Assembly (NCBI GenBank): GCA_951406725.2
Contig: OX597820.1
Location: 72,850,001 to 72,914,000 of the forward strand
From: Octopus vulgaris
Lineage: Eukaryota
DNA: 64,000 nucleotides
Direction of reading: 5' to 3'
The notes under the pieces are model-generated. The model was given only the letters and a program-made list of their open reading frames with translations, ran no database searches and was not told where the DNA came from. Below are positions 16,471-63,244 of the stretch, piece by piece. The position numbers and the translations under genes were made by a program. Each line of letters opens with the position of its first letter. The first letter of the stretch is position 1.

Positions 16471-16504
16471 GGCTTAGGAGTGGCTGTGTGGTAAGTAGCT
16501 TGCT
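16471..16504 (+). mobile_element. SINE family 1 5' stub (A box) up to the insertion site
   Basis: ggcttaggagtggctgtgtggtaagtagcttgct matches the heads at 53172 (+) and 63444 (-); the SINE resumes at 26921. Confidence 0.92.
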
Positions 16505-17986
16505 AACGCGCATGCGTCGAGTTGTTTACTGTGTCAAGTTTTGACTAGGCGGACAGAATCCTTTGAGCTGCTCGCCAGCGGTTTGTTGGCGAGTGGAAAA
16601 TAATGTATTCGGACCTTAGCGAGTACGAGCTGTCCACATCTGAGGAGGAGCTCGTTAAGGCGGTGAACAGGATGGACCAACATTTGGAGAAAATGAAGAG
16701 TTTTGCTGACGCGGCGGGAGTGAAGAGAAAGGAAGTGGACCTGACTGAACTGAAGGAGCTGTATAAGATGACACAGAAGGTGGGAAGTGACGTAAAGTTA
16801 CTACCCCCGAAAACGGTCATGGTGAATATGGAAAGGAAAACCATCACCTACAAGGTGCACTCAGTGGAGAGTAGGAGAGTGGAGCAGATGAATATGGAAA
16901 AAATAGAAAAAGCTCTCAAGGGGCTTTCGAACGAAGTAACATACATAGCAAACGGAAGCGGATATGGGACGGTGGTTGTCCAGTTTAAAACAGAGGAGGA
17001 GGCGAGGAGGCTGGCAAGTGCAACCGTAAAAGCTGAGGAACTGGTGCTTCTACCCTCTTATCTTGGAAGAAAAAATTCTAAGGTGAGGGTAGAAGGAATT
17101 CCACCTGACATAAAGGTGGCTTGGGTTGCGGCAGCCGTCCTCGTTGGAAGTGAGGAGGTGACTGTCCTCCAAGCCACAGAGACAGAGGAAAGAAGTTACA
17201 AAGGAAAACTACTGGAAATGACCATACAAGCGGAGGCGAAGGAGCTGGAAAATTTGGCGGAAACGTTGTCAGTGGGAGAAATAGTACTGAGAGTATGGGT
17301 AGAAGGCAGAACCCCGCGGTGCTTTAAATGTGGCCAAAAAGGCCACATTAGAGCACACTGCCCCCTACAGAAGAAAAAGAGGAAAAAATAGATGAACCAG
17401 TTGCGGAGACAAAGAAGAAAAAAGAGGACGAAGACAAAGACGGACGAAAGGAGGTAGAATGGATAGTAGCAGAGAGCTGAAGTAAGAAGAGGAAGAAAAG
17501 AAAGAACACTGAGTGTGAAATTGTACCCCAGTCCAACTCCATCCCACCCAAGACCACTCAGACCCACCCGCCCCATAAAGACACCAGACCCACCCACTCC
17601 CTTTCCCCACAAGAAAAAAAAGAAAAAGAAAAACGAGCAGACACCACAGAATTCAGAAAACCCCTCCCCCGGTGAAAAAGGTTGCGAAAGAAAGTTGTCT
17701 TTAAGCGATAGCGAGAATGGAAAAAGGAGGACTAGACCAGAGATTAGAGAAGAATTCAGACTCAAAGGCAGCGAGTGGTGTTGCTCAGAGTGGGGTGAGT
17801 AGCACACTCGTCATATTTCATACTTTATTTTCAGATATCATGCATGTTATCATAAACTTAATTTATTTTCTCACGTTCATTTTCATGTCACTCACAGTAT
17901 CATTTTATTTTTAATTGTTATATGTCTCCACATGTTTTTGTAGTGTCCCCTCTATGTAATGCCTTTATGGCAAAATAGTTGAAATA
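16505..17986 (+). mobile_element. ORF1-only Tx1-related non-autonomous retroelement, lineage A, copy 1 (~1.5 kb)
   Basis: Bounded by AAGTAGCTTGCT at 16493-16504 and 17987-17998; one ORF1, no EN/RT; 3' hairpin plus AATAAA. Confidence 0.88.
16603..17391 (+). CDS. L1/Tx1-type ORF1 protein (RRM-like region plus CCHC zinc knuckle); probably continues to ~17802 across frameshifts
   Basis: CFKCGQKGHIRAHC = CX2CX4HX4C; GYGTVVVQF, LLPSYLGR and VEGRTP align with ORF1 of the autonomous element at 21872. Confidence 0.85.
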   Translation: MYSDLSEYELSTSEEELVKAVNRMDQHLEKMKSFADAAGVKRKEVDLTELKELYKMTQKVGSDVKLLPPKTVMVNMERKTITYKVHSVESRRVEQMNMEKIEKALKGLSNEVTYIANGSGYGTVVVQFKTEEEARRLASATVKAEELVLLPSYLGRKNSKVRVEGIPPDIKVAWVAAAVLVGSEEVTVLQATETEERSYKGKLLEMTIQAEAKELENLAETLSVGEIVLRVWVEGRTPRCFKCGQKGHIRAHCPLQKKKRKK

Positions 17987-17998
17987 AAGTAGCTTGCT

Positions 17999-19955
17999 AA
18001 CTGCGCATGTGCGAGTCAGTGCTGTGTTTGCTACTGAAGCAGTGAAGATGTGCTTTTGAAGCCGTCTTGAATTGAAACTTTGGAAGCCCCATGTAAGGTA
18101 AGATTCTGTTTTCTGGGTCCAGTGGGAGTTTTTGTTGAGAATTATTTTTTACATGCAGGAAGTCCTACTGGATTCAGAATTCTGATTCTGCCGACATGTG
18201 GCAGATATATTTTTCTCGCTGAGAAAATTTTTGGGGGCGTATCCGTCTTCGAATTGTGAAAATTGTATTGTGCTGTGAAGAACTACCAATTTTACACCAA
18301 TTTATGTGGAAGTTGTGCGATCCTGGTTCGATTTAGGCCGGGAGTACCAAATGGCCAAAAGGATTTTGCTGTGTTTTTGACTTTCTTTTTAACTTTATTT
18401 GACTTTCTTTTCAACTTTATTTGACTCTCTCCGTTTTTTCATTGTGACATTCTTCGGATTTCCTTTTCTTCTCGTTTTTTAGTTTTATTCTAAATACATT
18501 TATTTAAAAAAAAACAAAAAAAACATGGCAACAAAAGAAACCACCGCTTTAGAATGGGAGGTCGTCCCACCCAAGCAGTGGATTGAAAGTCTTGAGAAGA
18601 GGACGGTGGTCCTACGAACCTATTCTAGGTCGCGTGGAGCCATTGCCCTCTTCGACAGGAATACTATAGAGAAAGAGTTGGGGGAATACCTGCCAACTAT
18701 AAAATTTATTTCTCGGGGGACTAAATTTGCAACGGTCTGGTTGCTGTTTGGTACCCCCGAGGAAGCTAGCAGATTTGCTAGCGAGCCACTGGAGGGAGAG
18801 GAAATTTTGTTCCTCCCCTCGTATTGTGGAAGAAAAGTGAAAAGAGCCTGGGTGTGTGGGCTGCCCCCGGGCACGGAGGCGGAATGGATCGAGAAGACCA
18901 TCCGGCGAGGCCTGGGGGATAGCGGACCCAGACTGCTGAGTGTGAAGGTGGCTCCCGCGGTCGCCTGGCAGGGGTCGAGGGCAACTTTGACCCTCTGGAC
19001 ACCGGTAGCCGTGGGGGAAATGAAATTCCCGGACTTCCTGAGAATGGCTGGGCACAGGTACCCGGTGATACTCGAGGGTCGCCCCCCCAAGTGTCACCTG
19101 TGCCTGAAGCCCGGACATATCAGGAAGAATTGTCCCAGGGGCCGTGGTGGTGCCCCGGAGCAGAGAGGGGAAAAGGCGCCCGCCGCCCCCTCATTGGAGG
19201 GGAGACGATGGAAGTCGTGGAGGAGGTTGCCTCCACGAAAAGAAGAGAAAGGCGAGCAACAATGGTTGCCCGCCAAAGAACGCTCAGGGGGCGAAGGGGG
19301 ATAGCAATCCCCCGTGTCTGGTGACGGAGTCCCCTGGGTCAGCAGTCTCCCCCAAAAGAAGGAGGAGAAAAAGGAGAGGTCGGACGGAGCCGCGGGTGGG
19401 ATGTGTGCCACCCGCGGACAAGGCTCCGCCGGTAGGAAGTGTGCCACCGACGGAGCAGTGTGAGGTCCCTCCCTGTGAAGAGGAGATGCTTCTCCTCCTT
19501 TACCACAAGGGAGAGGAGGTTGAAAGATTCTTGAATGGCTTGGGTGACCGAGAGCGTAAGGACACGGTCGGCTCAAGGAGTCCGTTATGGCCTCCGCAGG
19601 TAGCTGCGGAAAAAGTAACAGAAGATACTTTTTCAAGGGTCGCAGAGACCTTTGAAAAGAAAGACTTTACCTTTCTCCTTGCAGGCCCCGACTTGTCGTC
19701 GCAGAGTTGTCTGCAGGCGGCAAGACAATTTGCTTCGGGGACCTGACGAGAAGAATTGTTGAACATTTTTATGTAATTTGAATCATTGTTTATTAAATGT
19801 ATTTATTGAAACATTGTTTTAGAGAAGCGAAAGTCGGCGGGCGCTTTCGACTTCTCCCATCACCATCTTCATCCACCACCATCATCCATTAATGTCCTTG
19901 TCCAGCCCGTAGCTACTACTCTGTGTGCTGCCCTAGTGGCAAATTATATAAAATA
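17999..19955 (+). mobile_element. ORF1-only Tx1-related non-autonomous retroelement, lineage B (~2.0 kb)
   Basis: Between target motifs 17987-17998 and 19956-19968; one ORF1, no EN/RT; 3' tgcc-ctagt-ggca plus AATAAA. Confidence 0.86.
18525..19746 (+). CDS. Lineage B ORF1 protein (zinc knuckle), frameshifted in the low-complexity linker
   Basis: EKRTVV, FATVWLLF, FLPSYCGR, LEGRPPKCHLCLKPGHIRKNC in ORF 18525-19304; an overlapping frame runs to the stop at 19746. Confidence 0.78.
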
Positions 19956-19968
19956 AAGTAGCTTTGCT

Positions 19969-21465
19969 AACGCGCATGCGTCGAGTTGTTTACTGTGTCA
20001 AGTTTTGACTAGGCGGACAGAATCCTTTGAGCTGCTCGCCAGCGGTTTGTTGGCGAGTGGAAAATAATGTATTCGGACCTTAGCGAGTACGAGCTGTCCA
20101 CATCTGAGGAGGAGCTCGTTAAGGCGGTGAACAGGATGGACCAACATTTGGAGAAAATGAAGAGTTTTGCTGACGCGGCGGGAGTGAAGAGAAAGGAAGT
20201 GGACCTGACTGAACTGAAGGAGCTGTATAAGATGACACAGAAGGTGGGAAGTGACGTAAAGTTACTACCCCCGAAAACGGTCATGGTGAATATGGAAAGA
20301 AAAACTATCACCTACAAGGTGCACTCAGTGGAGAGTTGGAGAGTGGAGCAGATGAATATGGAAAAATAGAAAAAGCTCTCAAGGGGCTTTCGAACGAAGT
20401 AACATACATAGCAAACGGAAGCGGATATGGGACGGTGGTTGTCCAGTTTAAAACAGAGGAGGAGGCGAGAAGGCTGGCAAGTGCAACCGTAAAAGCTGAG
20501 GAACTGGTGCTTCTACCCTCTTATCTTGGAAGAAAAATTCTAAGGTGAGGGTAGAAGGAATTCCACCTGACATAAAGGTGGCTTGGGTTGCGGCAGCCGT
20601 CCTCGTTGGAAGTGAGGAGGTGACTGTCCTCCAAGCCACAGAGACAGAGGAAAGAAGTTACAAAGGAAAACTACTGGAAATGACCATACAAGCGGAGGCG
20701 AAGGAGCTGGAAAATTTGGCGGAAACGGTGTCAGTGGGAGAAATAGTACTGAGAGTATGGGTAGAAGGCAGAACCCCGCGGTGCTTTAAATGTGGCCAAA
20801 AAGGCCACATTAGAGCACACTGCCCCCTACAGAAGAAAAAGAGCACACTGCCCCCTACAGAAGAAAAAGAGGAAAAAATAGATGAACCAGTTGCGGAGAC
20901 AAAGAAGAAAAAAGAGGACGAAGACAAAGACGGACGAAAGGAGGAAGAATGGATAGTAGCAGAAGTAAGAAGAGGAAGAAAAGAAAGAACACTGAGTGTG
21001 AAATGGTACCCCAGTCCAACTCCATCCCACCCAAGACCACTCAGACCCACCCGCCCCATACAGACACCAGACCCACCCACTCCCTTTCCCCACAAGAAAA
21101 AAAGAAAAAGAAAAAAGAGCAGACACCACAGAATTCAGAAAACCCCTCCCCCGGTGAAAAAGGTTGCGAAAGAAAGTTGTCTTTAAGTGATAGCGAGAAT
21201 GGAAAAAGAAGGACTAGACCAGAGATTAGAGAAGAATTCAGACTCAAAGGCAGCGAGTGGTGTTGCTCAGAGTGGGGTGAGTAGCACACTCGTCATATTT
21301 CATACTTTATTTTCAGATATCATGCATGTTATAAACTTAATTTATTTTCTCACGTTCATTTTCATGTCACTCACAGTACCATTTTATTTTTAATTGTTAT
21401 ATGTCCCCACATGTTTTTGTAGTGTCCCCTCTATGTAATGCCTTTATGGCAAAATAGTTGAAATA
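19969..21465 (+). mobile_element. ORF1-only element, lineage A, copy 2
   Basis: Near-identical to 16505-17986 with the same 5' and 3' ends; flanked by aagtagctttgct and aagtagttttgct. Confidence 0.9.
20067..21284 (+). pseudogene. Lineage A ORF1 copy 2, split by single-base homopolymer deletions
   Basis: Track ORFs 20067-20369, 20336-20548, 20545-21186 and 20949-21284 join into the same protein; the first two breaks are A6-to-A5 changes relative to copy 1. Confidence 0.8.
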
Positions 21466-21871
21466 AAGTAGTTTTGCTAACCTCACTGACAGAAGAGTGA
21501 CTTTGCTTACCGTACTACGGTTTGGACGCGTTTTCTTCCCGGTAAGAGTTTTGCTGTGTTGTTAATTGTTGAATTCCTACTACTGAAAATTTGCCTTTAA
21601 ACGTTGCTGAACTGTCTTGTTCTCCGGTTTTACCGGGAAATAATTGAATAATTTCTTACCGTTGAACTGTTAGCCATTGTGGCTTTTTATTTACGTGACT
21701 ATATATAGTCCTGCCAGACTATTTTCGTGCCCCTCCCCCGAATGGGGGTGGGAATTGGAATTTTTGAACTGCTTTTTTGAACTACTTTGGAAGAAAAACT
21801 TTCTATAGGTTTCCCAGTTTTGTGGGAAACCAATATTCGTAATTTTTGTGTTGTCTAATTTCAACAGAATA

Positions 21872-23273
21872 ATGTCTGTTGAAATTATTCACGAAAGTAG
21901 TGCTCTTGAGGAGAGCAATGTTAAAAAATTTTCTGAGGTAGCCGCAGTGGCTACCGAGAACATCGATATCGATGTCAATCAGCTCGTCGAGCTATTTAAA
22001 AGAATGCAAGAGGAGGGTGGTGATGTTAAAATATCACCCTCCGCCAGTATCGTGGAGACCGAGAAGCGGACCGTAGTGTTTAAAACTTTCTGTCCACAAA
22101 GCAGAAGGTTCAAACACTTTGAAAAAAGCACCATCGAGAAATGCCTGTCCCCAATTTGGAAGGACATCGTGTACGTCGCCAGGGGACGGGCATATGGCAC
22201 TGTGGATGTCCGCTTCTCGGGGGAAGAAATGGCCCGCGGGCATTCTGTAAACCCCCTAAAAACCAAGGAGGTGGTACTTTTTCCAAGCTATAGGGGACGC
22301 AGGACGTCCCGGGTCAGGATTGTAGAAGCCCCGCCGGAAGTAGATCCGGTAGAGGTAGTGGCCGCCCTATTATATAAATGGGCGGACAAAATAAAAATAC
22401 TAGAAGTAACATGCTCTACCCCTCGATTTTGGCTCGGGCGTAACATTAATATATTAATTCAAGGAACAGCGGAGGACCTACAGCTCCTTCCTGAGAGGGT
22501 GCTCGTGGGCGAGAACGTAGCCCTCAGGGTACAGGTCGAAGGCCGAAAACCCACCTGTTACGCCTGCGGCAAAAAGGGCCACATTCGTGTAGACTGTCCA
22601 GACAAGCAAAAGAAACCGCAGACACCAGGCCCCTCAGATAATAAAAAAGTCCCTACCCTTGCAAACACACCTACCCCTACAAAAACAAAAAATCCCACTC
22701 CTGCTGTTACGGTGCCAACCCCAAAACAGACTGAAGAAAAAACCCAGCCCTCGCACTCACAAACCCCTACACTATTAAAACCTCCCACCCCCTAAAAACT
22801 GCGGCGCCTACCGAACAAACTATTGCTACCCCAGACGATACCATGGAGGTATCAGAGGGGGATTTACACCAGTTCGTAAAAGAATTCGTGCAGCATCCCC
22901 GTCCACATCCCCTACAAAAAATAATAAAAACAAAGACACACCACAGACACGGAAAAAAAAATCCCGCTCAACTGGCCCAGAAAAAGAAGACAAAAAAGAA
23001 AATGAACTCATATTAATTGAATTCGACACACAAGACAAATACATAAACGATATTGTGGTTCAGCATCAGTCAGCAAGACTGTACAACAAATACAAAGATC
23101 GAAATAGACACGCGTGGATTGCGGAAACAACGTTCAAACAATTAAAAGACAGACACCCAAACGCCATCCGGCATGTCGCGAACTTGCCGGACTATCTGAA
23201 GAAAGAGGAGAAAGAAGGGGCCCACAAACGTGTGGTGAGGTCGGCCCCCACCTCTCCAACGAAATGTAAGTAG
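21872..23273 (+). CDS. Tx1-like ORF1 (RRM-like, CCHC knuckle, Pro/Thr/Lys-rich tail), two apparent -1 homopolymer frameshifts
   Basis: CYACGKKGHIRVDC; adding one C (~22790) and one G (~22860) extends the frame to the stop at 23273, just before the ORF2 ATG. Confidence 0.8.
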
Positions 23274-23290
23274 AACTTTTACTTTTTGTA

Positions 23291-26200
23291 ATGGCTTCGA
23301 TTAACCTTGGTTGTTTAAATGTGCGTGGTCTGAGTTCGAAGTGGAAGCAGGCTTGTTTCCTCGACGACCTCAGATCACATGATATACATGTGATGGTTGC
23401 TACAGAGACCAAGCTGGACAGCCTACAAACCTTCTCGCCTCTCCTGAATGGCTACGAGAAAATCATGTCTCCTGGCCAGACCGGAGGGCGAGGGGGCGTA
23501 GTGGTACTGATCCGTAAAGACTTGGCTCTACAGACAAGTACAGTCTATGTAGACCCAGAAGGTGGGCTGGTCGTCCTTGATGTGACATACAGCAGTAAGT
23601 CCTTCAGGTTGATCGGACTCTATGCACCTTGTGCTAGAAGTTTCCAAACTGATTTTTATCGGCGCCTAGAGGGCTTTCTCGTGACGTCGAAGACTTTAGT
23701 GATATTAGGGGACTTTAATGCTATCGTTGACGTACACATCGATAGCGTTGGCTCGATCTATAGGAAAGTGAACTCACGTCTCGTGGATCTGCTTAAGCGG
23801 TTTCAGCTAGCAGATCGTTACAGACTTGACCATCCGAACGTCCCAGAGTGGACCTGGATGAGTGGCGACGGAAGGTTCAAGTCTTATCTAGACAGGATAG
23901 TGATAAGAACTAGAGATAAGTCTAGTTTTAGTTGTCCACAGCTCGTCCAGGTGCCCTATACTGACCATAGAATGGTCACGTGTAGACTGGACATAGATAG
24001 CACACTTAAGATAGGAACCGGCTACTGGAAGCTGAACAAGTCTATTTTGACACGCGAGCATACCGTAGCCGGATTAAGGTGTTAGTGCAGAGGGCGTTAA
24101 CCGGAGCCGTGGTTAATAACCGGTGGTGGTTCACCCTCAAAAGAGCCATTCGATTCGAGTCCATTAGATTTAGTAAACAACTAAGACTAGATAGGGCTAG
24201 AATAGAAGGGCAACTAGTTAAGAACTTAGAGGAGGCGTTGAGGTTGGGCTCTGCATCTCACATTTTAGCGGCGAGAACGGCATTAGACCGTCACCTCAAA
24301 ACCAAACATGAGGGATGTAGAGTCCGGGCTAAAGTACGAGCATTGGGCCGTGAGGGAATTAATGTTGCCGGATGGGCCCGTACGATAGGAACACAGCGTG
24401 GAAACGATGCCACAATTGGGACTCTTGTTGATGAAAACGGATGCACGATCAAGAAGCGGGACGAGATGTGTGAGGCACTTCACAAGCACTTCGCCGAGTT
24501 GTTCGGGAGGTGCGGGACGCTGGATCATGGTGAGCCCCTTAGGGACTTCCTGTCTGGTGGCCCGCGCCTCTCGACACGAGAGGCTGAGTGCTGTGAACGG
24601 CCAATCACATCCGAAGAAGTAATCGAGGTGTTGGGCAAGTGCCCCGGGGAGAAGTCGCCGGGTCTCGAGGGTCTGCCCTATGAATTTTATAGAAGTATGC
24701 CAGACTTGTTCGGACACCTGCTGGCTAGCGTCTACGCCAACTGGCAACAGAATGGGAGAATTCCCAAGTCTGCAAGCCGGGGGGCGGTGACGTTGATCAG
24801 GAAGGACCCGAACAAGGGGGACGAGATAGGGAACTTCAGGCCCATAACTCTGTTAAACACAGAGTTAAAGATTCTGGCCAAGGTGCTAGCAAAAAGGTTG
24901 GCGCGGGTCGTGGACAAACTTGTCGGGGAAGCGCAAACGTGTGCTATCCCCGGCAGAACGATCCACGACAATCTCCACCTTATACGCTACTCCTTAGAGA
25001 GGGTGGGGAAGCTTTCTGGCGCAGGGGGAGCACTGGTACATTTAGACCAGTCCAAAGCATTTGATAGGGTCGACCATCGGTACCTGGCGGCGGTCCTCGG
25101 AGAGGCTGGCCTAGGCCCGACCTTTCGAGGTTGGATCGCTGCTTTGTATAGCGACATCGAGTCTGTAGTCAAGGTGAACGGTTCCTTTTCGAAGCCGTTC
25201 AGGATCGAGCGTTCAGTTCGTCAAGGGTGTCCCCTGTCCTCGCTCCTATACGTATTGGCTCTTGAGCCTTTGCTGCGGAAGTTGGAGGCACTAGGGGGCG
25301 CGCCGCATGATCTATGGTGTGGAAGAGGAGCTACGGCGTATGCGGATGACACCTCCATCATCGTGGCAGACGAAGGCCAGCTTCCAGTGGTGGAAGAGGC
25401 CATCAAAAGCTACGAGGCGGTGGCAGGAGCAAAGGTTAACAAGGTCAAGTCGGTCGGTTTGCAACTCGGCACCTGGAGGGGCAAGCCGATGCCGTCCAAT
25501 AACGTCGTAGGGCGTTGGACGGAAGGTCCTGTTAAGCTGCTCGGAGTCTGGTTCGGGCCAGACCTCCAGATTGAGAAAAATTGGAGTGAGGTGGCCAACA
25601 AGGTGACCGCTCTAACCCAGATCTGGTCTGGGCGGGCGTTATCCCTGCTAGGGAAGGCGGAGGTGGTGCAGATGTTTATAGCATCAGTAATCACCTACCG
25701 CCTGACCGTGGTGCCTTGCCCCGATTTGTGGATGAACAAGTTGGAGAGAATCCTTTTCCGATTTTTGTGGAAAGGAGGAAAGCCACTTGTAAAGCGCTCT
25801 GTCTGCTGCCAGAAACCGCTAAAGGGTGGGCTAGGGATGCCTTGGCTGAGGATGCGAAAACTCGCGTTAAGGTTGAGGCACCTCTGGCTTTACCTGGATG
25901 GAGAGCAGGTGTGGTCGCCGCACGTCCGGTTCTACCTTCCCCAGTTAACATCCCTAACGGACATCGGTGCATGGATCAAACGGAGACCTAAACTGAGTGA
26001 ATGGCATTTGGAGTGCCGTCAGGCGCTCCAGCTACTATCTCGGGTGGGCAACGCCGGCAACAGGAGTTCCACCACGGATTTCTATAGCGGGTTAGTGGAG
26101 ATTAAGTCCGAAGACGCCTTGGGGGAGACCCTGGGCTACGATGAAAATCAGTTGGTCAACCTGTTCCGAAGGACGTTCGGGCCGGGGTATCTGGATAATT

Positions 26201-26692
26201 ACCAGAAATCCCTGGCCTGGCAGTGTTTCCGTGCGGCTTTACCTGTTCGCGACAAGCTGTCAAGGCACGGTAGTGCCGTCTCGCCGACATGCCCGCGATG
26301 TGAGCAGGATAGGGAGACCGTCTTGCACGCATTCGTGGAGTGTCCGGAGTTATCGGGACTGATAGCTTTTGTTGAACAACTGTTGTCAGTGATGGGAAGA
26401 GTACAGCTATCAGCTGAGTCTATCATCGAGATTGTGCCGCCCCCTTTCCTTAACAGGGAAAGAAAGGCTTGTTTTTTTCTGTGTAGTAGCCATACTGAAA
26501 GAAACAGTATGGAAGACGGGTACGAAAGGTATAGTGACAGGCACCTTTGTCTCCGGCCAGGGGTTGATTAACTTTTTTAGTTACCACCTCAGTAGCAAAA
26601 TCAGGCTGGAGAAGAGGTGTCTGTCACGAGATATGCTTGTGAAAAGATGGAAGCCTGTGGCATACAAGATGGGTATGTTTGGCACCAGGTAA
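23291..26692 (+). CDS. ORF2: apurinic-like endonuclease, reverse transcriptase and C-terminal zinc finger; two single-base frameshifts (~24058, ~26475)
   Basis: APE motifs LNVRGL, TETK, LYAP, GDFN, LDRI, TDH, WKLN; RT motifs KSPG, FRPITLLN, LDQSKAFDRVDH, VRQGCPLS, YADD; zinc finger CPRC..ETVLHAFVEC. Confidence 0.93.
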
Positions 26693-26920
26693 GTGTGACC
26701 GGATCAGAAAGTAAAGGTTCTACCCGGATGGCTGGGTGTCCGTCCTTCGACATGATCATTAATATTTTTAAACATTGCCTTCGTAAAATTCATTGTTTAT
26801 AATCTTATCCGTAATTTCATTCGAAAATTGTAACTGTGTTAAGCTACTTCACCCTTTATATTTGTCTGTCCTTGTTTGTCCCCTCTTTGTAAATGCCTAA
26901 ATGGCAAATTATATGAAATA

Positions 26921-27070
26921 AAGTAGCTTGCTTATGAACCACATGGTTCCGGGTTCAGTTCCACTGCATGGCACCTTGGGCAAGTGTCTCCTACTTATAG
27001 CCTCGAGACGACCAAAGCCTTGTGAGTGAATTTGGTAGACGGAAACTGAAAGAAGCCCGTCGTACATATG

Positions 27071-27123
<53 letters not shown>

Positions 27124-27314
27124 CTGTGTTTGTCCCCCCAACATCGCTTGACAACCGATGCTGGTGTCTTTACGTCCCCGTAACTTAGCGGTTCAGCAAA
27201 AGAGACCGGTAGAATAAGTACTAGGCTTATTAAGAATAAGTCCCGGGGTCGATTTGCTCGACTAAAGGCGGTGATCCAGCATGGCCGCAGTCAAATGACT
27301 GAAACAACTAGAAG
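26921..27314 (+). mobile_element. SINE family 1 remainder (B box, body, internal (TA)n, 3' part)
   Basis: aagtagcttgcttatgaaccacatggttccgggttcagttccactgcatggcaccttgggcaagtg...gcagtcaaatgactgaaaca. Confidence 0.92.
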
Positions 27315-28225
27315 TGTATAAGGGTAATTAATTTTAAACGACTGTTTGATTTATCGCACGGTAAATCAGTCAATCAGCGAAACCTGTCAAGATAAACCTG
27401 AAGTTAGGGAAGGAATGTCAATGATGCGATCATGACTGGCGACGAACAGACTTTGGACAAACATGTGAGGAGCACAGTTTGTATCCCAGAAAAAACTTCA
27501 AACTTCAACTAAACTAGAAGGAAAAATCGCCACAAAACTCCCATATACATATACAACGACGCCAAACACTATTACAACAGAATATTAAAATTCAAACATA
27601 AAAATCATGTACGCAGTGAAGTATCTGCAAATATCTGCTGCACCAATAACCCCAGCCTGAAACATTGTGCTGGGTTACACACCACCACCAACAAATACAG
27701 AAGAACAGCATCCGTCACGCGCTGGTCGGTTCCGCGCTGTCTGTTTCAGATATAAGAATCCACCCGAATCTGCATGTGTACTGAAATAAAGTGGAGTAAG
27801 ACTAAACCCCCGACGATTTCATCACTGCGTCTCGGAGTGTGAAGTGTGGTTCTTAACTAGGTTAGATTATGGTGTAACTGGAACAATAGATACACCATGG
27901 GATTCATAGCAACAATAACAACATCGTACACCAGTATACCTACATACACATGTGTGTTTGTGTGGAGTAGCGCGCGCGCGTGCAAATATATATATATGTA
28001 TACACACACACACACAGACGCACGCACACGCAATGCAAGTGCGCATGTTTTGCTGTTAATCTGATGAAATGCTTCTCCAATGTAATCGGTTGCTAATATT
28101 GTGTAACTTTTCACATGAAATTATTTACTTGCTACGGTGTTAGAAACGGAATGGTACTGAAGTAACTAATAATAAAGCGATATTGAATTCATTCTTCGTA
28201 TTCTTAAATGTATCATACGTGTATG

Positions 28226-28265
<40 letters not shown>

Positions 28266-28559
28266 CATGTGTGTGTATGTGTGTGTATAGATAGAAAGAT
28301 AGATACATACATACAATCATGCATACATACATATACGTGCGTACATTCATACATAATCCATGCATACATACACATACACATATACACATACATACGTATA
28401 TTCATACATAATACATACATAGATGCATACAAGCATACACAAACCCGTACATACATACATATATACATACACACACATTCATTCATACATACATACATAC
28501 ATACATATACGTGCGTACATTTGTACATAATACATGCATAAAAACACACGTACATGCAT

Positions 28560-28615
<56 letters not shown>

Positions 28616-28725
28616 GTTTTCCTTCCAAAGATAGAGGCATTGCACTGATGCAGTGCAATACTTTTCCCATAATCGATAAAGTAGATGAAAATTCCTGCTG
28701 AGTCGTTATTATTTGAATCCATTTA

Positions 28726-28912
28726 AGGCAGCGAAATGGCAGAACAGTTTGCACGCCGTACAGAATACTTAGCAGTATTTCGTCCGTCTTTACGTTCTGA
28801 GTTCAAATTCCATTGAGGTTGACTTTCCCTTTCGTCCTTTCGAGATCGATAAAATAAATATCTGTTGAGCATTGAGATTGATGCAATTGACTACACACTT
28901 CCCCTAAAATTT
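28726..28912 (+). mobile_element. SINE family 2 monomer, degenerate
   Basis: aggcagcgaaatggcagaacag...gtatttcgtccgtctttacgttctgagttcaaattcc. Confidence 0.75.
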
Positions 28913-28924
28913 CGTTCATATCTA

Positions 28925-29541
28925 AAAGGGGGTTAAAGATACAGTGGACAAACAAGGACAGACAAAGGGATCAAATCGATTACATCGACCCCAGTGTGTA
29001 ACTGATACTTAATTTATCGAACCAGAAAGGATGAAAGACAAAGTCGACCCCGGCGGAATTTGAACTCAGAACATAAAGACAGACGAAATACGGCTACGCA
29101 TTTCGCCCGGCGTGCTAACGTTTCTTATTTCTTTATTGCCCACAAGGGCCTAAACATAGAGGGGACAAACAAGAAAAGACAAAGGGATCAAATCGATTAC
29201 ATCGACCCCAGTGTGTAACTAGTACTTAATTTATCGACACAGAAAGGATGAAAGGCAAAGTCGACCTCGGCGGAATTTGAACTCAGAACATAGCGGCAGA
29301 CGAAATACCTATTTCTTTACTACCTACAAGGGGCTAAACACAGTGGAAACAAACAAGGACAGACAAACGGATTAAGTCGATTACATCGACCCTAGTCCGT
29401 AACTGGCACTTATTTAATCGACCCCGAAAGGATGAAAGGCAAAGTCGACCTCGGCAGAATTTGAAATCAGAACGTAGCGACAGACGAAATACGGCTACGC
29501 ATTTCGTCCGGCGTGCTAACGTTACTGCCAGCTCGCTGCCT
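28925..29541 (-). mobile_element. SINE family 2 tandem trimer
   Basis: Three collinear units with junctions at 29123/29124 and 29308/29309. Confidence 0.85.
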
Positions 29542-30808
29542 TAGAACTCCTAATAATATTGAATCATAAAAATACAATATAATTTTTTAAACATCGAATG
29601 GCCAGGTGGGTCCACCAGAATATAAAACAGGAGTCCAAGGAGTCCATAGGTAAAAAAAAAAAAATGCTTGAGAAACATTTATTTACGAGAAACTGTTCAA
29701 ACAAGAAATCGAAACTGGAACTATGGCATAGAAACAGCTGATTGAAAGCCTATTTCTTCTCTGCGGCACATGCTTCAATTCCGTATTCGAGAAAATAACT
29801 TCCAGTTCATCTGAACGGCAAAACCAATTAATTACCAATATTTTGGAGATGCACAGCCAATCGTTTAAACCTGAAGCATAAAGTACAGTAGTATAACAAC
29901 ATAAATATTATTATTTCCTCTGTCAGAACAAAACAAATCAAAATAAATTGACAGGAAATTATCAAGCTTCGCTATTTGTTCCCGACTTGATTGTTTCACA
30001 CATCTAGTTTGATTTTAATTAAATTGAATTCAAGTATTTATTGGTTTGTAAAAGAAATGATTGGTTATGAAATTAATTAGCTGATCTGTTCTTTTTAAGT
30101 AATAACAGATTTATAATCTAATTGCTAGCTTTAATATATTTCTGTAGTCATATCTAAAATCTCTGAATTAATTGTTACCAGATGACTGTCAAGAATAATT
30201 ATCGAGTGATATCTAATTTAAATTAGTGTCCTTCCAACTATTACGGCTGCTGAATAATATAATCTATAATTTTAGTTGCATTTAAAAATTAGCTTCGAAT
30301 AACTGACATCCATAACTGAAGAACCAGCTCATAGCTGAGAAATGGCCATCGTTTAAATTTTTAACACAGCACGAATTGCCAATGATTACGTTCACAGTAA
30401 AACCGCCGAATGGAAACCGGATGTCAGCTTCGATTCTCGATTAATGCCTCTTCACTTCATTTTTGTTTCTAACACATTTGTAGAATGCATGAATGTCACA
30501 GCATTATATTTCATGTCCTGTGTAAGCCTAGGGCTTTAACCTATCAATACTGTTCAGTGTAGGGACTGACAGGTGAAAGATTAGACCCAACGTTTCCGAG
30601 CGACTAAAAGAGGGTTCAAGGTATGATTTGTACCCTTATCTCGCAAAGCCTTCACCAGTAAAAACTACTGAAAACTGATTCACGGATTGGAGGGTTGTCG
30701 TGTGAGTGGTGCAAAGGGGCCATCCACCAGGAATGGTAGGGAATCACCAACAAACCGGGGATGCAACGATGCGCTGTTACAACACATGCACCCCATACTA
30801 GTATTATT

Positions 30809-30985
30809 TCTACTACTACTACAGCTGCTGCTACTACTATGATTGCTGCTGCTACTACTACGACTGCTGCTGCTGCTACTACCACTACTATTACGATTAC
30901 TACTGCTGCTACTACTACTACTAACTACTACTACGACGACGATTGCTGCTGCTGCTGCTACTACTACTTCTACTACTACTACTCC
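30809..30985. repeat. (CTA/CTG)n microsatellite
   Basis: Direct reading. Confidence 0.9.
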
Positions 30986-31227
30986 ACGTAAGCAAAAAGG
31001 CAGCTCTGTATGTGAATCTAGAAAATAATTATGATCTGGTTTTGAGTATCCCATTGACGCAGCTTAATCCAATACAAATACAGATAATCGCCAGACAGGG
31101 TTAAAGCGATACACCGAATGGGGAGGCTGAGTGTTCGAATCCAAAGTACAATTCATTCGACACGTTTCCGAACCGCCTAGTTTCTGTTTTGTGGCTTTTC
31201 ATTAACCCACGACTATAATGGTTCTAG

Positions 31228-32249
31228 ATTTTGGCACAATGCCAGCAATTTCAGGGAAGTGGGTAATTCTATTACATCGACCCCAGTACCTGACTGGTAC
31301 TTATTTCATCGACCCCGAAAGGATGAAAGGCAAAGTCGACCCCTGCAGAATTTGAACTCAGAACGTAATGCCGCTAAACATTTGCTCGGTGGGCTAACGA
31401 TTCTCTTATCTACTCCAGACACAAGGCCCGAAATTTGGGGGGAGGAGGCCAGTCAATTAGATCGACTCCAGTACGCAACTGGTACTTAATTTATCGACCT
31501 CGAAAGGATGAAAGGCAAAGTTGAAAGCGGTGGAATATGAACTCAGAACGTAAAGACAGACGAAATACCGCTAAGCATTTGGCCAGGAGTGCTAACGTTT
31601 CTTATTTCTTTATTGCCCACAAGGGGCTAAACATAGAGGGGACAAACAAGGACAGACAAAGGGATTAAGTCGATTACATCGACCCCAATGCGTATCTGGT
31701 ACTTAATTTATCGACCCCGAAAGGATGAAACGCAAAGTCGACCTCGGTGGAATTTGAACTCAGAACGTAACGGCAGACGAAATACGGCTACGCATTTCGC
31801 CCGGCGTGCTAACGGTTCTACCAGCTCACCGCCTTACAACTCCTAATGATATTATTTTCTACTCTAAGCACAAGGCCCGAATTTTTTGGGAAGAGGGCCA
31901 GTCGATTAGATCGACCCAGTATGCAACTGGTACTTAATTTATCGACCCCGAATGGATGAAAGGCAAAGTCGACCTCGGCGGAATTTGAGCTCAGAACGTA
32001 GCGGCAGACGAAATACCTATTTCTTTACTACCCACAAGGGGCTAAACACAGAGAGGACAAACAAGGACAGATAAACGGATTAAGTCGATTATATCGCCCC
32101 CAGTGCGTAACTGGTACTTATTTAATCGACCCCGAAAGGATGAAAGGCAAAGTCAACCTCGGCGGAATTTGAACTCAGATCGTTAAGGCAGGCGAAATAC
32201 CGCTCGGCATTTCGCCCGGCGTGCTAACGTTTCTGCCGGCTCGCCGCCT
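31228..32249 (-). mobile_element. SINE family 2 cluster: partial monomer plus two dimers (~31415-31833, ~31855-32249)
   Basis: Repeated tcgaccccgaaaggatgaaaggcaaagtcgacctcggcggaatttgaactcagaacg core; Tx1-like tails at 31601-31670 and 32017-32085. Confidence 0.88.
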
Positions 32250-32349
32250 TACCCCATTACAATATTAGAGGAAATCTGTGATAATGAACTGACAGAATCG
32301 TAAGCATTCCAGAAAAAAAAAATTGCTTAGCAGATTTTCTTCCAGTTTA

Positions 32350-33498: not shown

Positions 33499-34479
33499 AG
33501 AGTGTCGTCTTACATATATCTAGGGTATGTCCGAAAATAAGATTAAATGGCCATGGCTTGAACACCTTTTAGTATAAATCTACTCATGTATTAATTCAAT
33601 GACACTTAACATATTCTGATAGTTAAATACAATAATAGTTTCAAATTCTGGCACAAGGCCAGCAATTTCAGGGGTTGGTGTAAGTCGATTACATCGACCC
33701 CATTGCTCAACTGGTACTTATTTTATCGACTTCAAAAGGATGAAAGGCAAAGTCGACCTTAGTGGGATTCGAACTCAGAACTTAAGGACGGACGAAATGA
33801 CGCAAAACATTTTACCTGGCAGGCCACCTTAAATACAATAATAAAACGATAACATGCCCAACACATTTATGATCAATTCAACAGATGAATTTATTGATAT
33901 ACTTAGAACAACCACACCTAAAAACATCATTGCTCCCTAAGATGTTAAGCAGTTAATCATTAATGTGCCAATAAACATCGTAATATATTCCATAGTCAAG
34001 CATGCATACCATCAACACGATGGGTGAAATGCTTAGCGGCATTTTTGCCACCCTTACGTTCTGAGTTCAAATTACGTCAAAGTCGACTTTGCCTTTCATC
34101 ATACCGGGTTCGATTAAATAAATATTGGGGTCGATGTAATCGACAGATCCCCTCCCCTCAAATTTCAGGCCTTGTGTTATTAACTGTTCAATGTTTGGTT
34201 TATTGAAGCAAATTTCTACTGCATCGTCTTCTACACTTCCGTGTTACTGGGGTATGTGCAGCATTGTGTGTTCTTTTCTGCTGTTGGGAGTGTGCGAACT
34301 CTTCCTGGTACTGTATTGTGTTGTGGTGCTGTCTTTTGTTGTGTTACTGCTTATATCGTGTTGAGTGTGTAATACCTTGATTTCTGGCTTGCTGGTGGAA
34401 GTTTATTCCACTGGGTAAACGGTGTATAGAGTGTATCTTGTATTTGTGGGTTGCTTTGTTTAGGTTGTATTACTGGATT

Positions 34480-35756
34480 GATAACGTCTCATATAGGATA
34501 TGGGCAATTCCTAGCAGGGCTATTTTTTAGACAGTGTGTAGTGTTGAGGGTCCAGGTATAGCTTCTACATTTTTATTCATATAATTTTTTATCATGCCCA
34601 ATGCTCCAGTTATTCTTTTCTCCTCTAGGCACAAGGCACGAAATTTTGGTGAAGGGGACCAGTCGATTAGATCGACTCCAGTACGCAACTGGTACTTAAT
34701 TTATCGACCCTGAAAAGATGAAAGCAAAATCGACCGCAGCGCAACAGCGCAATTTGAGCTAAGAACGTAAAGACAGACGAAATACCTATTTCTTTACTGC
34801 CCACAAGAGGCTACACACAGAGGGGACAAACAAGGACAGACAAACGGATTAAGTCGATTATATCGCCCCCAGTGCGTAACTGGTACTTATTTAATCGACC
34901 CCGAAAGGATGAAAGGCAAAGTCGACCTCGACGGAATTTGAACTCAGAACGTAGCGGCAGACGAAATACCTATTTCTTTACTTCCCACAAGGAGCTAAAT
35001 ATAGAGGGGACAAACAAGGACAGACATAGGTATTAAGTCGATTACATCGACCCCAGTGTGTAACTGGTACTTAATTTATCGACCCCGAAAGGATGAAAGG
35101 CAAAGTCGACCTCGGCGGAATTTGAACTCAGAACGTAACGACAGACGAAATACCGCTAAGCATTTCGCCCGGCGTGCTAACGTTACTGCTAGCTCGCCGC
35201 CTTAATGCTCCAGTTATTATTGGTATTGTTTTTACCTTCATGCCCTATATTTTGAATACTTCAATTTCGAGGTCTTTGTACTTCGACAATTTCTCCAATT
35301 CTGCATTGGCAATCTTTTGATCTGAAGAAACAGTAATGTCTACAGGTGATTTTTCCCCAATCACTGACTATCATGTGTGGACGATTAGCTTTTATGAACC
35401 TGCATATCCGAGATGATTGTGGCCTGATCGTTGTCTTGTATCTTGCTTGGCACATGCTTATACCACTTGCACTCAGTTTTGACGTTGTAATGTTGGCATA
35501 TTTTCCAGTGGATATAACTGTTTACTTTGTCGTGTCTGTATACATATTCAGGCTTGGCAAGGACTGGGCAGCCCGAGGTGATGTGGTCAACTGTCTCATT
35601 GTGCTGGTTGCACAATCTACATTTGGTGTTGAGGCCTGTTTTCATTATTTTATTTTTATAATTTTTTGTAGTCAGGCATTGGTCTTGTGCAGCGAGAATC
35701 AGTCCTTTCGTTTCGGCTTTTTGTCCAAAGCTTTTGAGCCATTGTTGGCTTTTACT
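34480..35756 (-). mobile_element. 5'-truncated R4/Dong-like non-LTR retrotransposon fragment (CCHC plus restriction-like endonuclease), interrupted by a SINE trimer
   Basis: AETKGLILAAQDQCL..CRLC..ETVDHITSGC..RHDKV..IHWKIC, then ANRP(H)MIV and KTIPIITGALGMIK across the SINE. Confidence 0.8.
34615..35203 (-). mobile_element. SINE family 2 tandem trimer with 15-bp TSD
   Basis: TSD aatgctccagttatt at 34600-34614 and 35204-35218; internal junctions at 34785/34786 and 34969/34970. Confidence 0.92.
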
Positions 35757-35841
35757 TATTATTATCATTACTATTATTATCATTATTATTATTATTATCA
35801 TTATTATTATTATTATCATTATTATTATTATTATCATTATT

Positions 35842-35897
<56 letters not shown>

Positions 35898-36030
35898 CCT
35901 TATCATTATTATCATTATCATTATCATTATTATCATTATTATCATTATTATTATCATTATTATTATTATCATTATCATTATTATTATTATCATTATTATC
36001 ATTATCATTATTATTATTATTTATAATAAT
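35757..36030. repeat. (TAT/CAT)n microsatellite
   Basis: Direct reading. Confidence 0.95.
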
Positions 36031-43076: not shown

Positions 43077-44517
43077 AATAAAATATATGCATATATATAA
43101 ACATATATGTACGTACCTACCTCTACATGTACATATACACGCATATATGTGTACAGGACACCAAAAGGACGTCGAACACATAGAGAGACGAAAAACATAG
43201 ACACAAACCAAGGAACAAGACAAGCAAAAAAAGGAAATACAGGACAATAAGCACAACGAAAAATCCCCTTCTTCAGTCGCTAAAGTTTCATCTACTAAAC
43301 GTTTCGAAGGATAAAAGCGAGACGTATACTTCGAATGAAAAATTCCTTCCCGCGAAAAGCAAATCAATTAAAATTCTGAGATCTTGTCGCAGAGGGGTAA
43401 AAAAAAAGGCAAGACGGTAACGACAGTACAAACATATAAACAGTAAAAAATATATATATAAACAGTGGAAAAATAAATATATAACAGTGAGAGACAGGAC
43501 AAGGAGAACAAGATAAGAAGGGCTGTTAACGCCAGACGAAAAAAGTATTGCAAACGCTGGATTATAGTGGACGACGAGAGAGGAAGATGTCGACCAGTGG
43601 CCTTAGAAGGCAGGCGAAAAAGGACGGGATAGCAGTTACGACGGAAGTACGTCGCAGATGGACGACGGGAATGGGGGAGGAGGAGCAAGAGGAAGAGAGA
43701 GAAGAAGGGGAATGGTGCGAGGAGACCATGAAGAACAGTGAGGGGGAGAGAGAGAGGAAGAGACAAGTTAAGTGAGGGAAAAAAGACGAAAAAGGGAATG
43801 GGAGAGAAAGAAAGAAAGATGCAGAGTCGCGTGAGAGTTAATATCAAGGCGAACTTGATAAACAGAACAATCTTACTTAATAGGGTGCGTGCGTTTAGTC
43901 GTATAATATGTTAATAAAATATATGCATATATATAAACATATATGTACGTACCTACCTCTACATGTACATATACACGCATATATGTGTACAGGACACCAA
44001 AAGGACGTCGAACACATAGAGAGACGAAAAACATAGACACAAACCAAGGAACAAGACAAGCAAAAAAAGGAAATACAGGACAATAAGCACAACGAAAAAT
44101 CCCCTTCTTCAGTCGCTAAAGTTTCATCTACTAAACGTTTCGAAGGATAAAAGCGAGACGTATACTTCGAATGAAAAATTCCTTCCCGCGAAAAGCAAAT
44201 CAATTAAAATTCTGAGATCTTGTCGCAGAGGGGTAAAAAAAAAAAAGGCAAGACGGTAACGACAGTACAAACATATAAACAGTAAAAAATATATATATAA
44301 ACAGTGGAAAAATAAATATATAACAGTGAGAGACAGGACAAGGAGAACAAGATAAGAAGGGCTGTTAACGCCAGACGAAAAAAGTATTGCAAACGCTGGA
44401 TTATAGTGGACGACGAGAGAGGAAGATGTCGACCAGTGGCCTTAGAAGGCAGGCGAAAAAGGACGGGATAGCAGTTACGACGGAAGTACGTCGCAGATGG
44501 ACGACGGGAATGGGGGA
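43070..44517 (-). repeat. ~610-bp near-identical direct repeat (43070-43678 / 43906-44517) of a (TA)n-associated, Penelope-like dispersed family
   Basis: The only difference I noticed is one A-run length; related sequence at ~42010-42210, ~48490-49140 and in reverse at ~6250-6420 and ~61715-61860. Confidence 0.75.
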
Positions 44518-44536
44518 TACATATATATATATATAC

Positions 44537-44610
<74 letters not shown>

Positions 44611-44622
44611 ATACATATATAT

Positions 44623-44676
<54 letters not shown>

Positions 44677-44844
44677 GAATATATATAACTTAGAATAACT
44701 TAGAAAGGTTTTGGCCAGTATTGGCCCAGGCCATGTCTAACTTAATAGCACCACCTGGCGACGTCTTTCAGTTCAGGATTTGGGCACCAAGGCCCATTCG
44801 AGAAGAGAGTTATTGTTTGCAGAGACATATCCTGGTGTGGGTGG

Positions 44845-54597: not shown

Positions 54598-55889
54598 CGA
54601 GGGGCGTTCAATAAGTAATGCCCCTGACCCACTTCCCATAGCAGTAGAGCAACGAAACTTGGCACAGTTATTAGTCTTTTTCTACATAGGAACTACCCAG
54701 AGTTACGCATTTCTCACATCGTTTGATGCAGCTCTGAAGACCGTTTTTGTAGAAGACCCCAGCTTGGTCCTCCAACCACGACGTGACTTCAGAAATCAAG
54801 GCTGCATCATCTGGGAAACGCTTTCCTTTCAAAAACAACTTCATGGCTGGGAAGAGGTGAAAATCAGAGGGTGCAAGGTCAGGAGAGTATGGGGGATGGG
54901 GGATGAGTTCATAGTTGCACGCCTGTGCTTCTGATCTGGCGACACGCGAGTTGTGAACCGGAGCGTTGTCCTGCAAGAGGAGGATGCCTTTGCTGATCTT
55001 GCCCCGCCTCTTGATTTTGATAGCTTCTCTTAATTTCCTCAAAAGTGAAGCATAATAGGCTCCTGTAATTGTGGCACCCTTTGCCAGGAAATCTGTCATC
55101 AGTACTCCGTCCTGGTCCCAGAAGACTGTGAGCATGACCTTGCCAGCAGAAGGCTGCACCCTTGCCTTCTTTGGAGGAGGTGAGTCACGGTGTGTCCACT
55201 GCATTGACTGGGCTTTGGTCTCTGGATCATAGTGATGGACCCAGGTTTCATCCTGTGTAATCAGTCTTTTGAAAAATTTTGACTCATCTTCTTGGCACAT
55301 CTCCAAATTCATCCTCGAGTAATCGACACGTTCTTGCTTCTGGAAAGATGTGAGCAACCTGGGAATCCATCTGGCAGACACCTTTTGCATATGCAAATGG
55401 TCATGAATGATAGTTTCCACAGACCCGGTACTAATATTGACCTCATGGGCTATTTGGCGAATAGTTATGCGTCGATCTTCCAAAATGGCAGCCTCAACAT
55501 GACGGACAGATGCCTCATCAATGGCAGAAGGGGGCGACCAGATCTGGGAGCTGTTTCCACAGAGTTCCAACCATGTTTGAATTCACGATGCCAGCGTTTT
55601 ACAAAGTCATATGATGGGGCATCATCACCATAAGTTACTTTCATTTCATCAAAAGTCTCCCGTGGTATGCGTCCTTTCAAATACAAAAACTGGATCACTG
55701 CTCGACACTCAACAGGCTCCATTTCACACTTAACTCAGTTCAAACACTTGTAAATCAGAAACCACAATTAGTCCAGAGCTGTAATTTGTCACTTAATCTA
55801 TAAAGATATAAATAATTGTACATGCAAAATTTCAGCTAGATCAAATAACTGCAAGTGGGTCAGAAGCATTACTTATTGAACGCCCCTCG
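54598..55889 (-). mobile_element. Mariner transposon, 1292 bp, full length
   Basis: 37-bp TIRs cgaggggcgttcaataagtaatgc(cc/tt)ctgacccactt with TA on both sides. Confidence 0.95.
54671..55722 (-). CDS. Mariner DD34D transposase, one frameshift near 55530
   Basis: ATG 55722; PRSGRP; WIPRLL; ITQDETW; LLQDNAPVH; YSPDLAPSDFHLF. Confidence 0.92.
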
Positions 55890-61885: not shown

Positions 61886-62835
61886 CAGTTGCGGCCAAAA
61901 TGTTCAGAAAGGCATTGTTTTCGTCACAAAAGTAGGTATAAGTTTTTATCAAAGTTGTTTTATATTCTATAATTTTCACAGACAATAAATACGATATTAT
62001 TTGTTATTGTCTGAGATTTTGGTGTAATTAGAGAGGATAATAAAAAAGTTATGGATGATTTAGTGATTTACTGCAAAACCCATGGCGGCCAAAATGATCA
62101 GAACGGTTGCTTTTACTCCATGTTTTAGTATATTTAACCGTCGAACTCTAATGTTTTGAATTTGTTTACGTGACAGTTCGTTTACTAAACATTAGTAAGA
62201 ATATCTGCAGTGTACTTTGTTAATATAATGCCACTTACTCCGTTACCAATTCGTCAGCAGATTATTAAGCTCCGAAAGAAGGATAATTTAAGTATTAGGT
62301 CTATTGCAAAGATTGTTAACAAGTCAAAAAGTGTTGTTCATAGTATTCTTAAGGTCTACGATGATTGTGGTTCGTGTGAAGCAAGAAAGTCTACAGGTAG
62401 GCCAAGAAAAACGACCAAGAGAGAAGATCGTGCTATGGTAAAGTTGGTTAAAAAGGACAGATTTAAAACTGCTGCTGCTGTTTTTCAGGAAATGAGCATT
62501 GTACTGAAGAAAACTTTATCTCGAAAAACTGTGTCCCGTCCTTTAGTTGAACATGACCTGCAAGCAAAAGCACCTGCAGTGAAGCCACTGATCAGCTCCA
62601 AGAATAAAAAGTGTCGTCTTACCTTTGCAACCGAACATTTGTTGTGGTCTCAAGAAAAATGGCAAACGGTGCATTTCAGTGATGAATCTAAGTCCATTTT
62701 ATTTGGCTCAGATGGGAAAAGGTACGTTCGTCGAAAAGCAGGTGAAAAATTGTCACCTAAATGCCTTAAGACTAGTGTTAAATTCGGTGGAGGAAGTGTC
62801 ATGGTTTGGGGGATGATATCTGGAGATGTTGTGGG
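61886..62835 (+). mobile_element. 3'-truncated Tc1-family transposon with IR/DR-type left end
   Basis: TA|CAGTTGCGGCCAAAA terminus; inner direct repeat gcggccaaaatgatcagaacgg at 62085-62106. Confidence 0.85.
62228..62835 (+). pseudogene. Tc1 transposase N-terminal part
   Basis: LSIRSIAKIVNKSKSVV (HTH), GRPRKTT, WQTVHFSDESK, KFGGGSVMVWGMIS; then runs into SINE sequence. Confidence 0.88.
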
Positions 62836-62862
62836 CTCTGACTTAGCGGTTCGGCAAAAGAG

Positions 62863-62917
<55 letters not shown>

Positions 62918-62920
<3 letters not shown>

Positions 62921-63244
62921 TCTTACCCTTTACTTGTTTCAGTCATTTGACTGTGGCCATGCTGGAGCACCGCCTTTAGTCGAGCAAATCGATCCCAGGA
63001 CTTATTCTATCGGTCTCTTTTGCCGAACCGCTAAGTCACAGGCACGTAAACACATCAGCATCGGTTGTCAAGCGATGTTAGTGGGGGGACAAACACAGAC
63101 ATACAAACGTATACACACGCACATGCATACATACATACATACATACATACATACATACATACATACATACATACATACATACATACATACATACATACAT
63201 ACATACATGCATGCATACATACATGCATACATACATACATACAT

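Follow-up and report, generated by a model that had tools for sequence, protein, structure and literature searches.

In a table of 58 pairs of short interspersed elements (SINEs) and long interspersed elements (LINEs), three pairs have tails of the L1 clade, and none of these is animal or Tx1 in the part of the article available to us (Ohshima 2013, PMC3747384). The L1-tailed cases given there are maize ZmSINE2/3 with LINE1-1_ZM and Chlamydomonas SINEX-3 with L1-1_CR; the L1 clade is described as the exception to the shared-tail rule, with three tailed SINEs per >800 LINEs, in plants and algae only, and stringent RNA recognition by the ancestral L1 clade is left open in that part of the text (PMC3747384). 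Here we analyze a 64,000-nucleotide stretch of Octopus vulgaris DNA (contig OX597820.1, positions 72,850,001 to 72,914,000; hereafter the window), in which an abundant SINE, family 2, shares half of its tail with a young L1-clade LINE of putative Tx1 type. With at least 72,000 copies of the tailed SINE, and a hairpin that covaries over many Tx1-type families, this is an animal case of L1-clade tail sharing. As in the stringent pairs treated in the accessible sections of that survey, the SINE tail is the LINE 3′ end and holds a conserved hairpin with compensatory changes; the octopus tail differs from those pairs in lacking both poly(A) and poly(T) at its end (PMC3747384).

A link between a SINE and Tx1 elements has been described in crocodilians, where SINEU was tied to Tx1-Mar by its target; in the available sections of that article the tails are poly(A) and no common 3′ sequence is reported (Kojima 2015, PMC4494074). 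In both systems the Tx1 elements tied to the SINE use another transposon as their target, with tandem insertions there. In crocodilians, however, the partner was assigned by target sharing, and the SINEs, with small nuclear RNA heads, have the target in common, whereas octopus family 2 has the tail in common and not the target (PMC4494074). Octopus SINEs have been named before, with no Tx1 link in the accessible text of three articles (PMC4758252, PMC4824008, PMC8967140), and the MetaSINE model, as outlined in one of them, has tails exchanged around a conserved body, as in family 2 (PMC4824008). Bonar (2026, PMC13282606) reported thirteen L1-Tx1 families with recent activity in an octopus, along with SINEs that are for the most part unclassified; the words 'partner', 'tail' and 'target site' are absent from the text of that article as available, and its supplements may hold the present families. 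A literature search outside subscription journals, Repbase, Dfam and SINEBase found no report of an octopus SINE with a Tx1 tail.

The family 2 tail and the 3′ ends of Tx1-type LINEs

A sequence-only reading of the window had proposed that family 2 carries the 3′ tail of the LINE found there. The 26-mer on which it was based matches 26/26 at 26861–26886 (+), 31635–31660 (−) and 34819–34844 (−), and at up to three mismatches it has 10 matches in the window and none in 100 shuffles. In the SINE copy at 31603–31660 it is followed, as described in that reading, by a 4-bp stem with a 5-nt loop (31627–31615) and an A-rich end (31614–31603), and the match reported for lineage A is present as a 14-mer at 17944–17957. 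The complete SINE tail is ∼60 nt long and consists of a pyrimidine tract, a hairpin and an A-rich end without poly(A); the 26-mer is half of it. The LINE hairpin (26894–26906) also has a 4-bp stem and a 5-nt loop but in other sequence, so that identity between the SINE tail and the window LINE ends at the 26-mer, upstream of the hairpin. Among 30 fetched LINE copies the 26-mer is exact in 27 and has one change in three, indicating that it is not a one-off SINE fragment lodged in a single LINE copy. Nor do unrelated LINE clades match equally well, the 26-mer and the tail being absent from 30/30 loci examined (24 CR1/L2-type and 6 RTE-type).

Similar 3′ ends were found in many other LINEs. A genome search for the zf-RVT domain gave 25,802 candidates, of which 150 were scored and 70 of these viewed. 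The viewed loci fall into many families, about 55–69% alike to the window open reading frame 2 (ORF2), and nearly all of these families have a 3′ end in which a pyrimidine tract and a short hairpin precede an A-rich stretch that lacks poly(A). When 20 such tails were compared (17 loci plus the window LINE and elements A2 and B of Table 1), each formed its own hairpin of at least 3 bp (20/20, mean 4.0), while stem pairing across families averaged 2.8 (380 pairs); the own-family mean was equalled in 0 of 10,000 permutations, a count that is no probability, the tails being related. Since the stems are wholly different in sequence between families, this pattern represents covariation.

The SINE tail scored 42–64 against 13 of 24 Tx1-type tails, compared with shuffle means of 14–17. 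With a CR1-type and an RTE-type tail, one of each, the score was 12. Its two halves are matched by different families. The window LINE and locus L091 score 52 and 50 with the 5′ half and only 16 and 18, the null level, with the 3′ half, whereas L080, L098, L073, L095 and L165 score 42–48 with the 3′ half and 16–20 with the 5′ half; L091 has 25 nt exactly in common with the SINE tail plus the next 4, and the hairpin half is ∼90% alike in other Tx1-type families. We conclude that the SINE tail is homologous to the 3′ ends of one group of LINEs and not to those of others.

That group belongs to the L1 clade. The window LINE contains the Pfam domains Exo_endo_phos, RVT_1, zf-RVT and zf-CCHC, its ORF2 is nearest to L1 ORF2p among solved structures (169–172 bits, versus 66–74 bits for R2), and its protein is 22–28% identical to CR1/RTE-type loci. 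The nearest named ORF2 relative among the matches listed is from Argonauta hians (62%). The Tx1 label is probable on the basis of target specificity and the ORF1 knuckle: insertion into a specific target within a repeat, by which Tx1 elements are recognized, was seen in 30/30 copies, and several sister families have fixed flanks of their own. No named Tx1 element occurs among 120 listed homologues and 7 clusters, and atlas names give only LINE-1/RT family.

Exact 30-nt SINE tails number 72,385 in the genome, and 33 tailed units in 40 arbitrarily placed 10-kb samples (400 kb) scale to ∼230,000. Free full-length tailed monomers terminate at a constant nucleotide behind the A-rich end, with no added repeat, and target duplications ≥10 bp (10–21 bp, median 13) bracket 16/21 of them, compared with 28/420 mismatched pairs. 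Their flanks begin with TATA in eight and GGTA in four of the 21. Since free copies end exactly at the tail and carry target duplications, the tail is a working 3′ end. These ends are as target-primed reverse transcription from the tail would leave them, with an enzyme that would be of Tx1 type. At the other end of the SINE, A- and B-box-like motifs were seen by eye only; ARAGORN gave 0 genes, and 37 Rfam rows at E ≤ 1 held no tRNA. The octopus tRNA-SINEs OK, OR1 and OR2, reportedly described by Ohshima and Okada in 1994, are likewise abundant octopus SINEs, and families 1 and 2 were not matched to these names by sequence. Family 1 may resemble CORE, and family 2 may have a Meta-type body.

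A target-locked LINE and the search for a putative helper

The window LINE stands in a 10.4-kb stack (16471–27310) of four Tx1-type elements, three with ORF1 only and one full-length LINE, which split the head of a family 1 SINE at 16494/26922; the target recurs after each element. ORF2 of the LINE has a frame break near 24050. The ORF1 of A1 is 39% identical to that of the LINE, and the ORF1 of B is 28% identical to that of the LINE and to A. Half-L1 (HAL1) elements, ORF1-only forms reportedly described by Bao and Jurka in 2010, are similar in that A, B and an old family (L207–L213) keep ORF1 and the 3′ end without ORF2; the octopus elements differ in being target-specific Tx1-type derivatives stacked at one site. 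A loose end matching the family 1 head was found before 26921 in four public sequencing runs, and in four public contig sets no contig across 26400–35700 bridged an empty site, the joints being swamped by repeats.

The last 366 nt of the LINE have 679 genomic candidates, and all 40 of those scored are 99–100% identical. All 30 fetched copies terminate at the same short sequence in the family 1 head, 28 running on into the family 1 SINE and two into a further element after the target, so for this group an abundant SINE serves as the landing pad. Sister Tx1-type families have fixed downstream flanks of their own (L091/L166; L094/L100/L146; L131/L135/L139/L142; L133/L134/L138/L141; L095/L144/L150/L153; L145/L159/L169, with an (ATT)n flank; and L207–L213). 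One genome therefore contains Tx1-type families with many target specificities, a ready panel of ORF2, 3′-end and target combinations in which RNA recognition and target choice are separable.

The sequence-only reading held that a SINE subfamily had swapped tails and was now mobilized by this Tx1 group. The link is supported at the level of the clade; the named LINE and the present tense are not supported. The proposal that donor and current mobilizer are the window LINE family together with A and B draws on the top 5′-half score, the 26/26 identity and a young and numerous family. Its target, however, follows 0/61 sampled SINE tails and only 12 of the 72,385 exact tails genome-wide, close to a chance expectation of about 5–6, itself a noisy estimate (AGTA follows 1 of the first 100 listed tails, and 26/3418 such sites are the target). 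Neither the target nor the terminal hairpin and end is shared, the 3′-half score is at the null level, and L091 matches the 5′ half comparably. The 29 other LINE copies are 97.7–99.4% identical to the window copy, in a set picked for similarity and so biased young, versus SINEs ∼7% from consensus. An old A-like copy (83%) already lies at a family 1 head, which suggests that this targeting predates the SINE burst. We consider this proposal improbable; the window LINE is probably related to the true helper but not that helper itself.

The explanation we regard as probable is that the SINE tail came from a Tx1-type LINE, that the helper was a loosely targeting relative of the window LINE, and that composite copies carry the tail as a passenger. 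A family 2 subfamily would have acquired the last ∼60 nt of a Tx1-type LINE, probably by template switching at a short common pyrimidine run. The ORF2 protein most likely recognizes a 3′ RNA structure and not poly(A), as the covariation suggests; the SINE would mimic this structure and be copied by target-primed reverse transcription, with weak target preference, to roughly 200,000 units. The helper may have been active at the time of the SINE burst (∼7% ago) and may since have become rare or extinct, or it may have escaped sampling; the window LINE, tied as it is to the family 1 head, would have contributed at most traces. Some tailed copies would then have inserted at position 18 or 51 of older family 2 copies, and read-through could have captured the R1 tail (described below) to give composite masters, in which the Tx1-type tail stays inside.

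Several observations weigh against this explanation. No LINE with the whole SINE tail was found in the 70 viewed of 150 scored zf-RVT loci. Three exclusion or variant tail patterns gave 299, 382 and 1 matches, with 30, 0 and 1 loci viewed: of 30 viewed matches outside a SINE context one had an upstream ORF2, and it matched the 5′ half only; no repeated non-SINE upstream sequence occurs among 100 of the 382 listed matches; and the LINE-style tail variant has a single genome match, itself a SINE. The families that best match the hairpin have flank signatures that differ from those of the SINE. The 20 tails of the hairpin test are not independent, single tails fold only modestly (z −1.8 for the SINE tail), samples are small (13–22 copies per class), and the Tx1 placement is putative. 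In addition, all 12 SINE tails at the LINE target lie in the register of the LINE, and 5/6 of those viewed are whole SINEs exactly inside family 1 heads, four with duplications, so that some use of the window LINE machinery is possible. A quick tree (60/71 rows, 11 short matches excluded) sets the hairpin-matching families apart from the window LINE.

The L165 family (149 candidates, 5 viewed), old and ∼90% alike in the hairpin half, was considered as the partner and set aside, 3/5 sharing one fixed downstream sequence unlike the SINE flanks.

Alternatively, the Tx1-derived tail could be neutral, recognition being relaxed and the SINE copied by whichever LINE was active. That the exact partner was not found and that many tails are internal to composites (39/61, see below) would fit, but the end point of the free copies, like that of the LINEs, is a fixed nucleotide behind the A-rich end; in this genome CR1-type elements have (TTA)n at their ends and RTE-type elements other repeats; and compensatory change keeps the hairpin across LINE families. 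We give this alternative little credence. The reverse direction, in which LINEs took the motif from the SINE, or a low-complexity coincidence, is hardly credible: the much greater abundance of the SINE, the pyrimidine-rich 26-mer and the matching of the halves by different LINE families would fit, but the shuffles gave no match, the SINE body bears an alternative older tail, and the whole architecture is present in families with ORF2 only 60–70% alike and in families older than the tailed SINE (pairwise 81–87%; 72–88%).

Age order, the older tail and composite copies

The second end that the sequence-only reading had seen on other family 2 units was confirmed and is termed R. Over positions 1–168 of family 2, tailed monomers (n = 22) diverge from consensus by 7.2%, R1 copies (n = 13) by 12.7%, R2 copies (n = 13) by 16.6% and the leading units of arrays that end in R1 (n = 13) by 6.3% (tailed versus R1, p = 0.001). 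The tailed subfamily is thus younger than both R-tailed ones, as the proposed swap predicts, and the age order fits R, then tailed, then composite. None of 22 SINE copies is <3% from consensus; with copies ∼7% diverged, mobilization at present is unsupported.

The R tail may itself be of Tx1 type. In an old ORF1-only Tx1-type family (L035:8645–10000, −, with L207–L213; 7 of 14 pattern matches were viewed, and 5 show ORF1 similarity), the terminal hairpin has 13 nt identical to the R1 hairpin, at an equal distance from the end and with the very 5-nt loop of the new tail. By eye, the remainder of the R tail could not be aligned with the end of this family, and an autonomous partner for the R tail was sought without success. 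This hairpin suggests that both the old and the new tails are Tx1-type, and the swap may then have been between Tx1-type lineages and not onto Tx1. Tentatively, with a little less than even confidence, we propose that family 2, among the largest SINE families in the genome, always ran on a radiation of Tx1-type LINEs that read a 3′ hairpin and not poly(A), that the tail change was a hop between such lineages, and that composites have two handles. If true, stringent 3′ recognition would extend to an animal lineage of the L1 clade, one that comes in more than a dozen natural hairpin and target variants.

CR1/L2-type (24 loci) and RTE-type (6 loci) ends gave no match and were rejected as the source of either SINE tail, a single stray R-like 11-mer far from an end being found. 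R2-tailed SINEs often have ATT repeats directly 3′. A young abundant CR1/L2-type family (L172–L200; 24/30 top reverse transcriptase loci) ends in a 4-bp hairpin and (TTA)n; this hairpin is not in common with the R2 tail.

Nine tails in the window lie in a SINE context. Eight continue directly into a family 2 body, six at position 51 and two at position 18, and one has no recognizable end; none of the nine is therefore a free 3′ end in the window. The copies cited in the sequence-only reading lie inside composites whose own 3′ end is the older R1 tail, so that their Tx1-type tails are passengers and the partnership is not, as had been thought, visible in the window. Of 61 sampled tails, 39 continue into a family 2 body at position 51 or 18, the eight in the window included, and in 46 exact cases the position-51 site is immediately followed by an entire SINE head. 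Duplications of 14–19 bp surround the whole array in 6/12 arrays. Position 39 of array first units is G in 13/13, versus 4/12 in R1. An origin of arrays from R1 copies into which tailed units had inserted seamlessly was rejected, the array heads having tailed-type letters. Annotation of a large part of the octopus SINE content is affected, many 'copies' being composites with an internal tail.

Table 1. Tx1-type stack and family 2 units in the window
Feature	Positions	Strand	Basis
Family 1 SINE 5′ head and Tx1-type target site (first copy, from 16494)	16471..16507	+	Junction
ORF1-only non-autonomous element A1, stops at target	16508..17987	+	zf-CCHC ORF, 96% to A2, junction
ORF1-only element B, stops at target	18002..19956	+	ORF1 similarity, junction
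ORF1-only element A2, stops at target	19972..21466	+	96% to A1, junction
Young full-length L1-clade (putative Tx1-type) LINE	21482..26921	+	CCHC-knuckle ORF1, endonuclease, reverse transcriptase, zf-RVT
26-mer within LINE 3′ untranslated region, equal to 5′ half of SINE tail	26861..26886	+	
LINE terminal hairpin (4-bp stem, 5-nt loop) and A-rich end, without poly(A)	26894..26921	+	
Second copy of target site, then remaining family 1 SINE	26922..27310	+	
Family 2 array, three units (1–234, 52–234, 18–214), Tx1-type tails, last one decayed	28928..29543	−	
R1 unit from position 18, after cited tail; real 3′ end	31405..31602	−	
Tailed family 2 unit cited in the sequence-only reading; tail 31603–31660, hairpin 31627–31615	31603..31836	−	
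Composite: tailed unit and R1 unit from position 52	31860..32251	−	
Composite (1–234, 52–234, 52–R1 tail) with 34819–34844 match	34615..35204	−	14-bp duplication 34601–34614/35205–35218

Two SINE loci 2.3 kb apart have ∼17 bp of upstream flank in common (29544–29562 and 31837–31856), a likeness that may be due to chance or to an old local duplication. At 34180–36020 (−) lies the decayed end of a LINE, possibly Dong/R4-like, in which a cysteine-rich motif was seen; it adjoins a (TTA)n tract and is interrupted by the SINE composite at 34615–35204. Elsewhere in the window, transposase-like frames that appear by eye mariner-like and Tc1-like lie at 54671–55582 (−) and 62189–62950 (+), and repeated frames at 43288–44700 mark a direct duplication with a spacing of about 840 bp.

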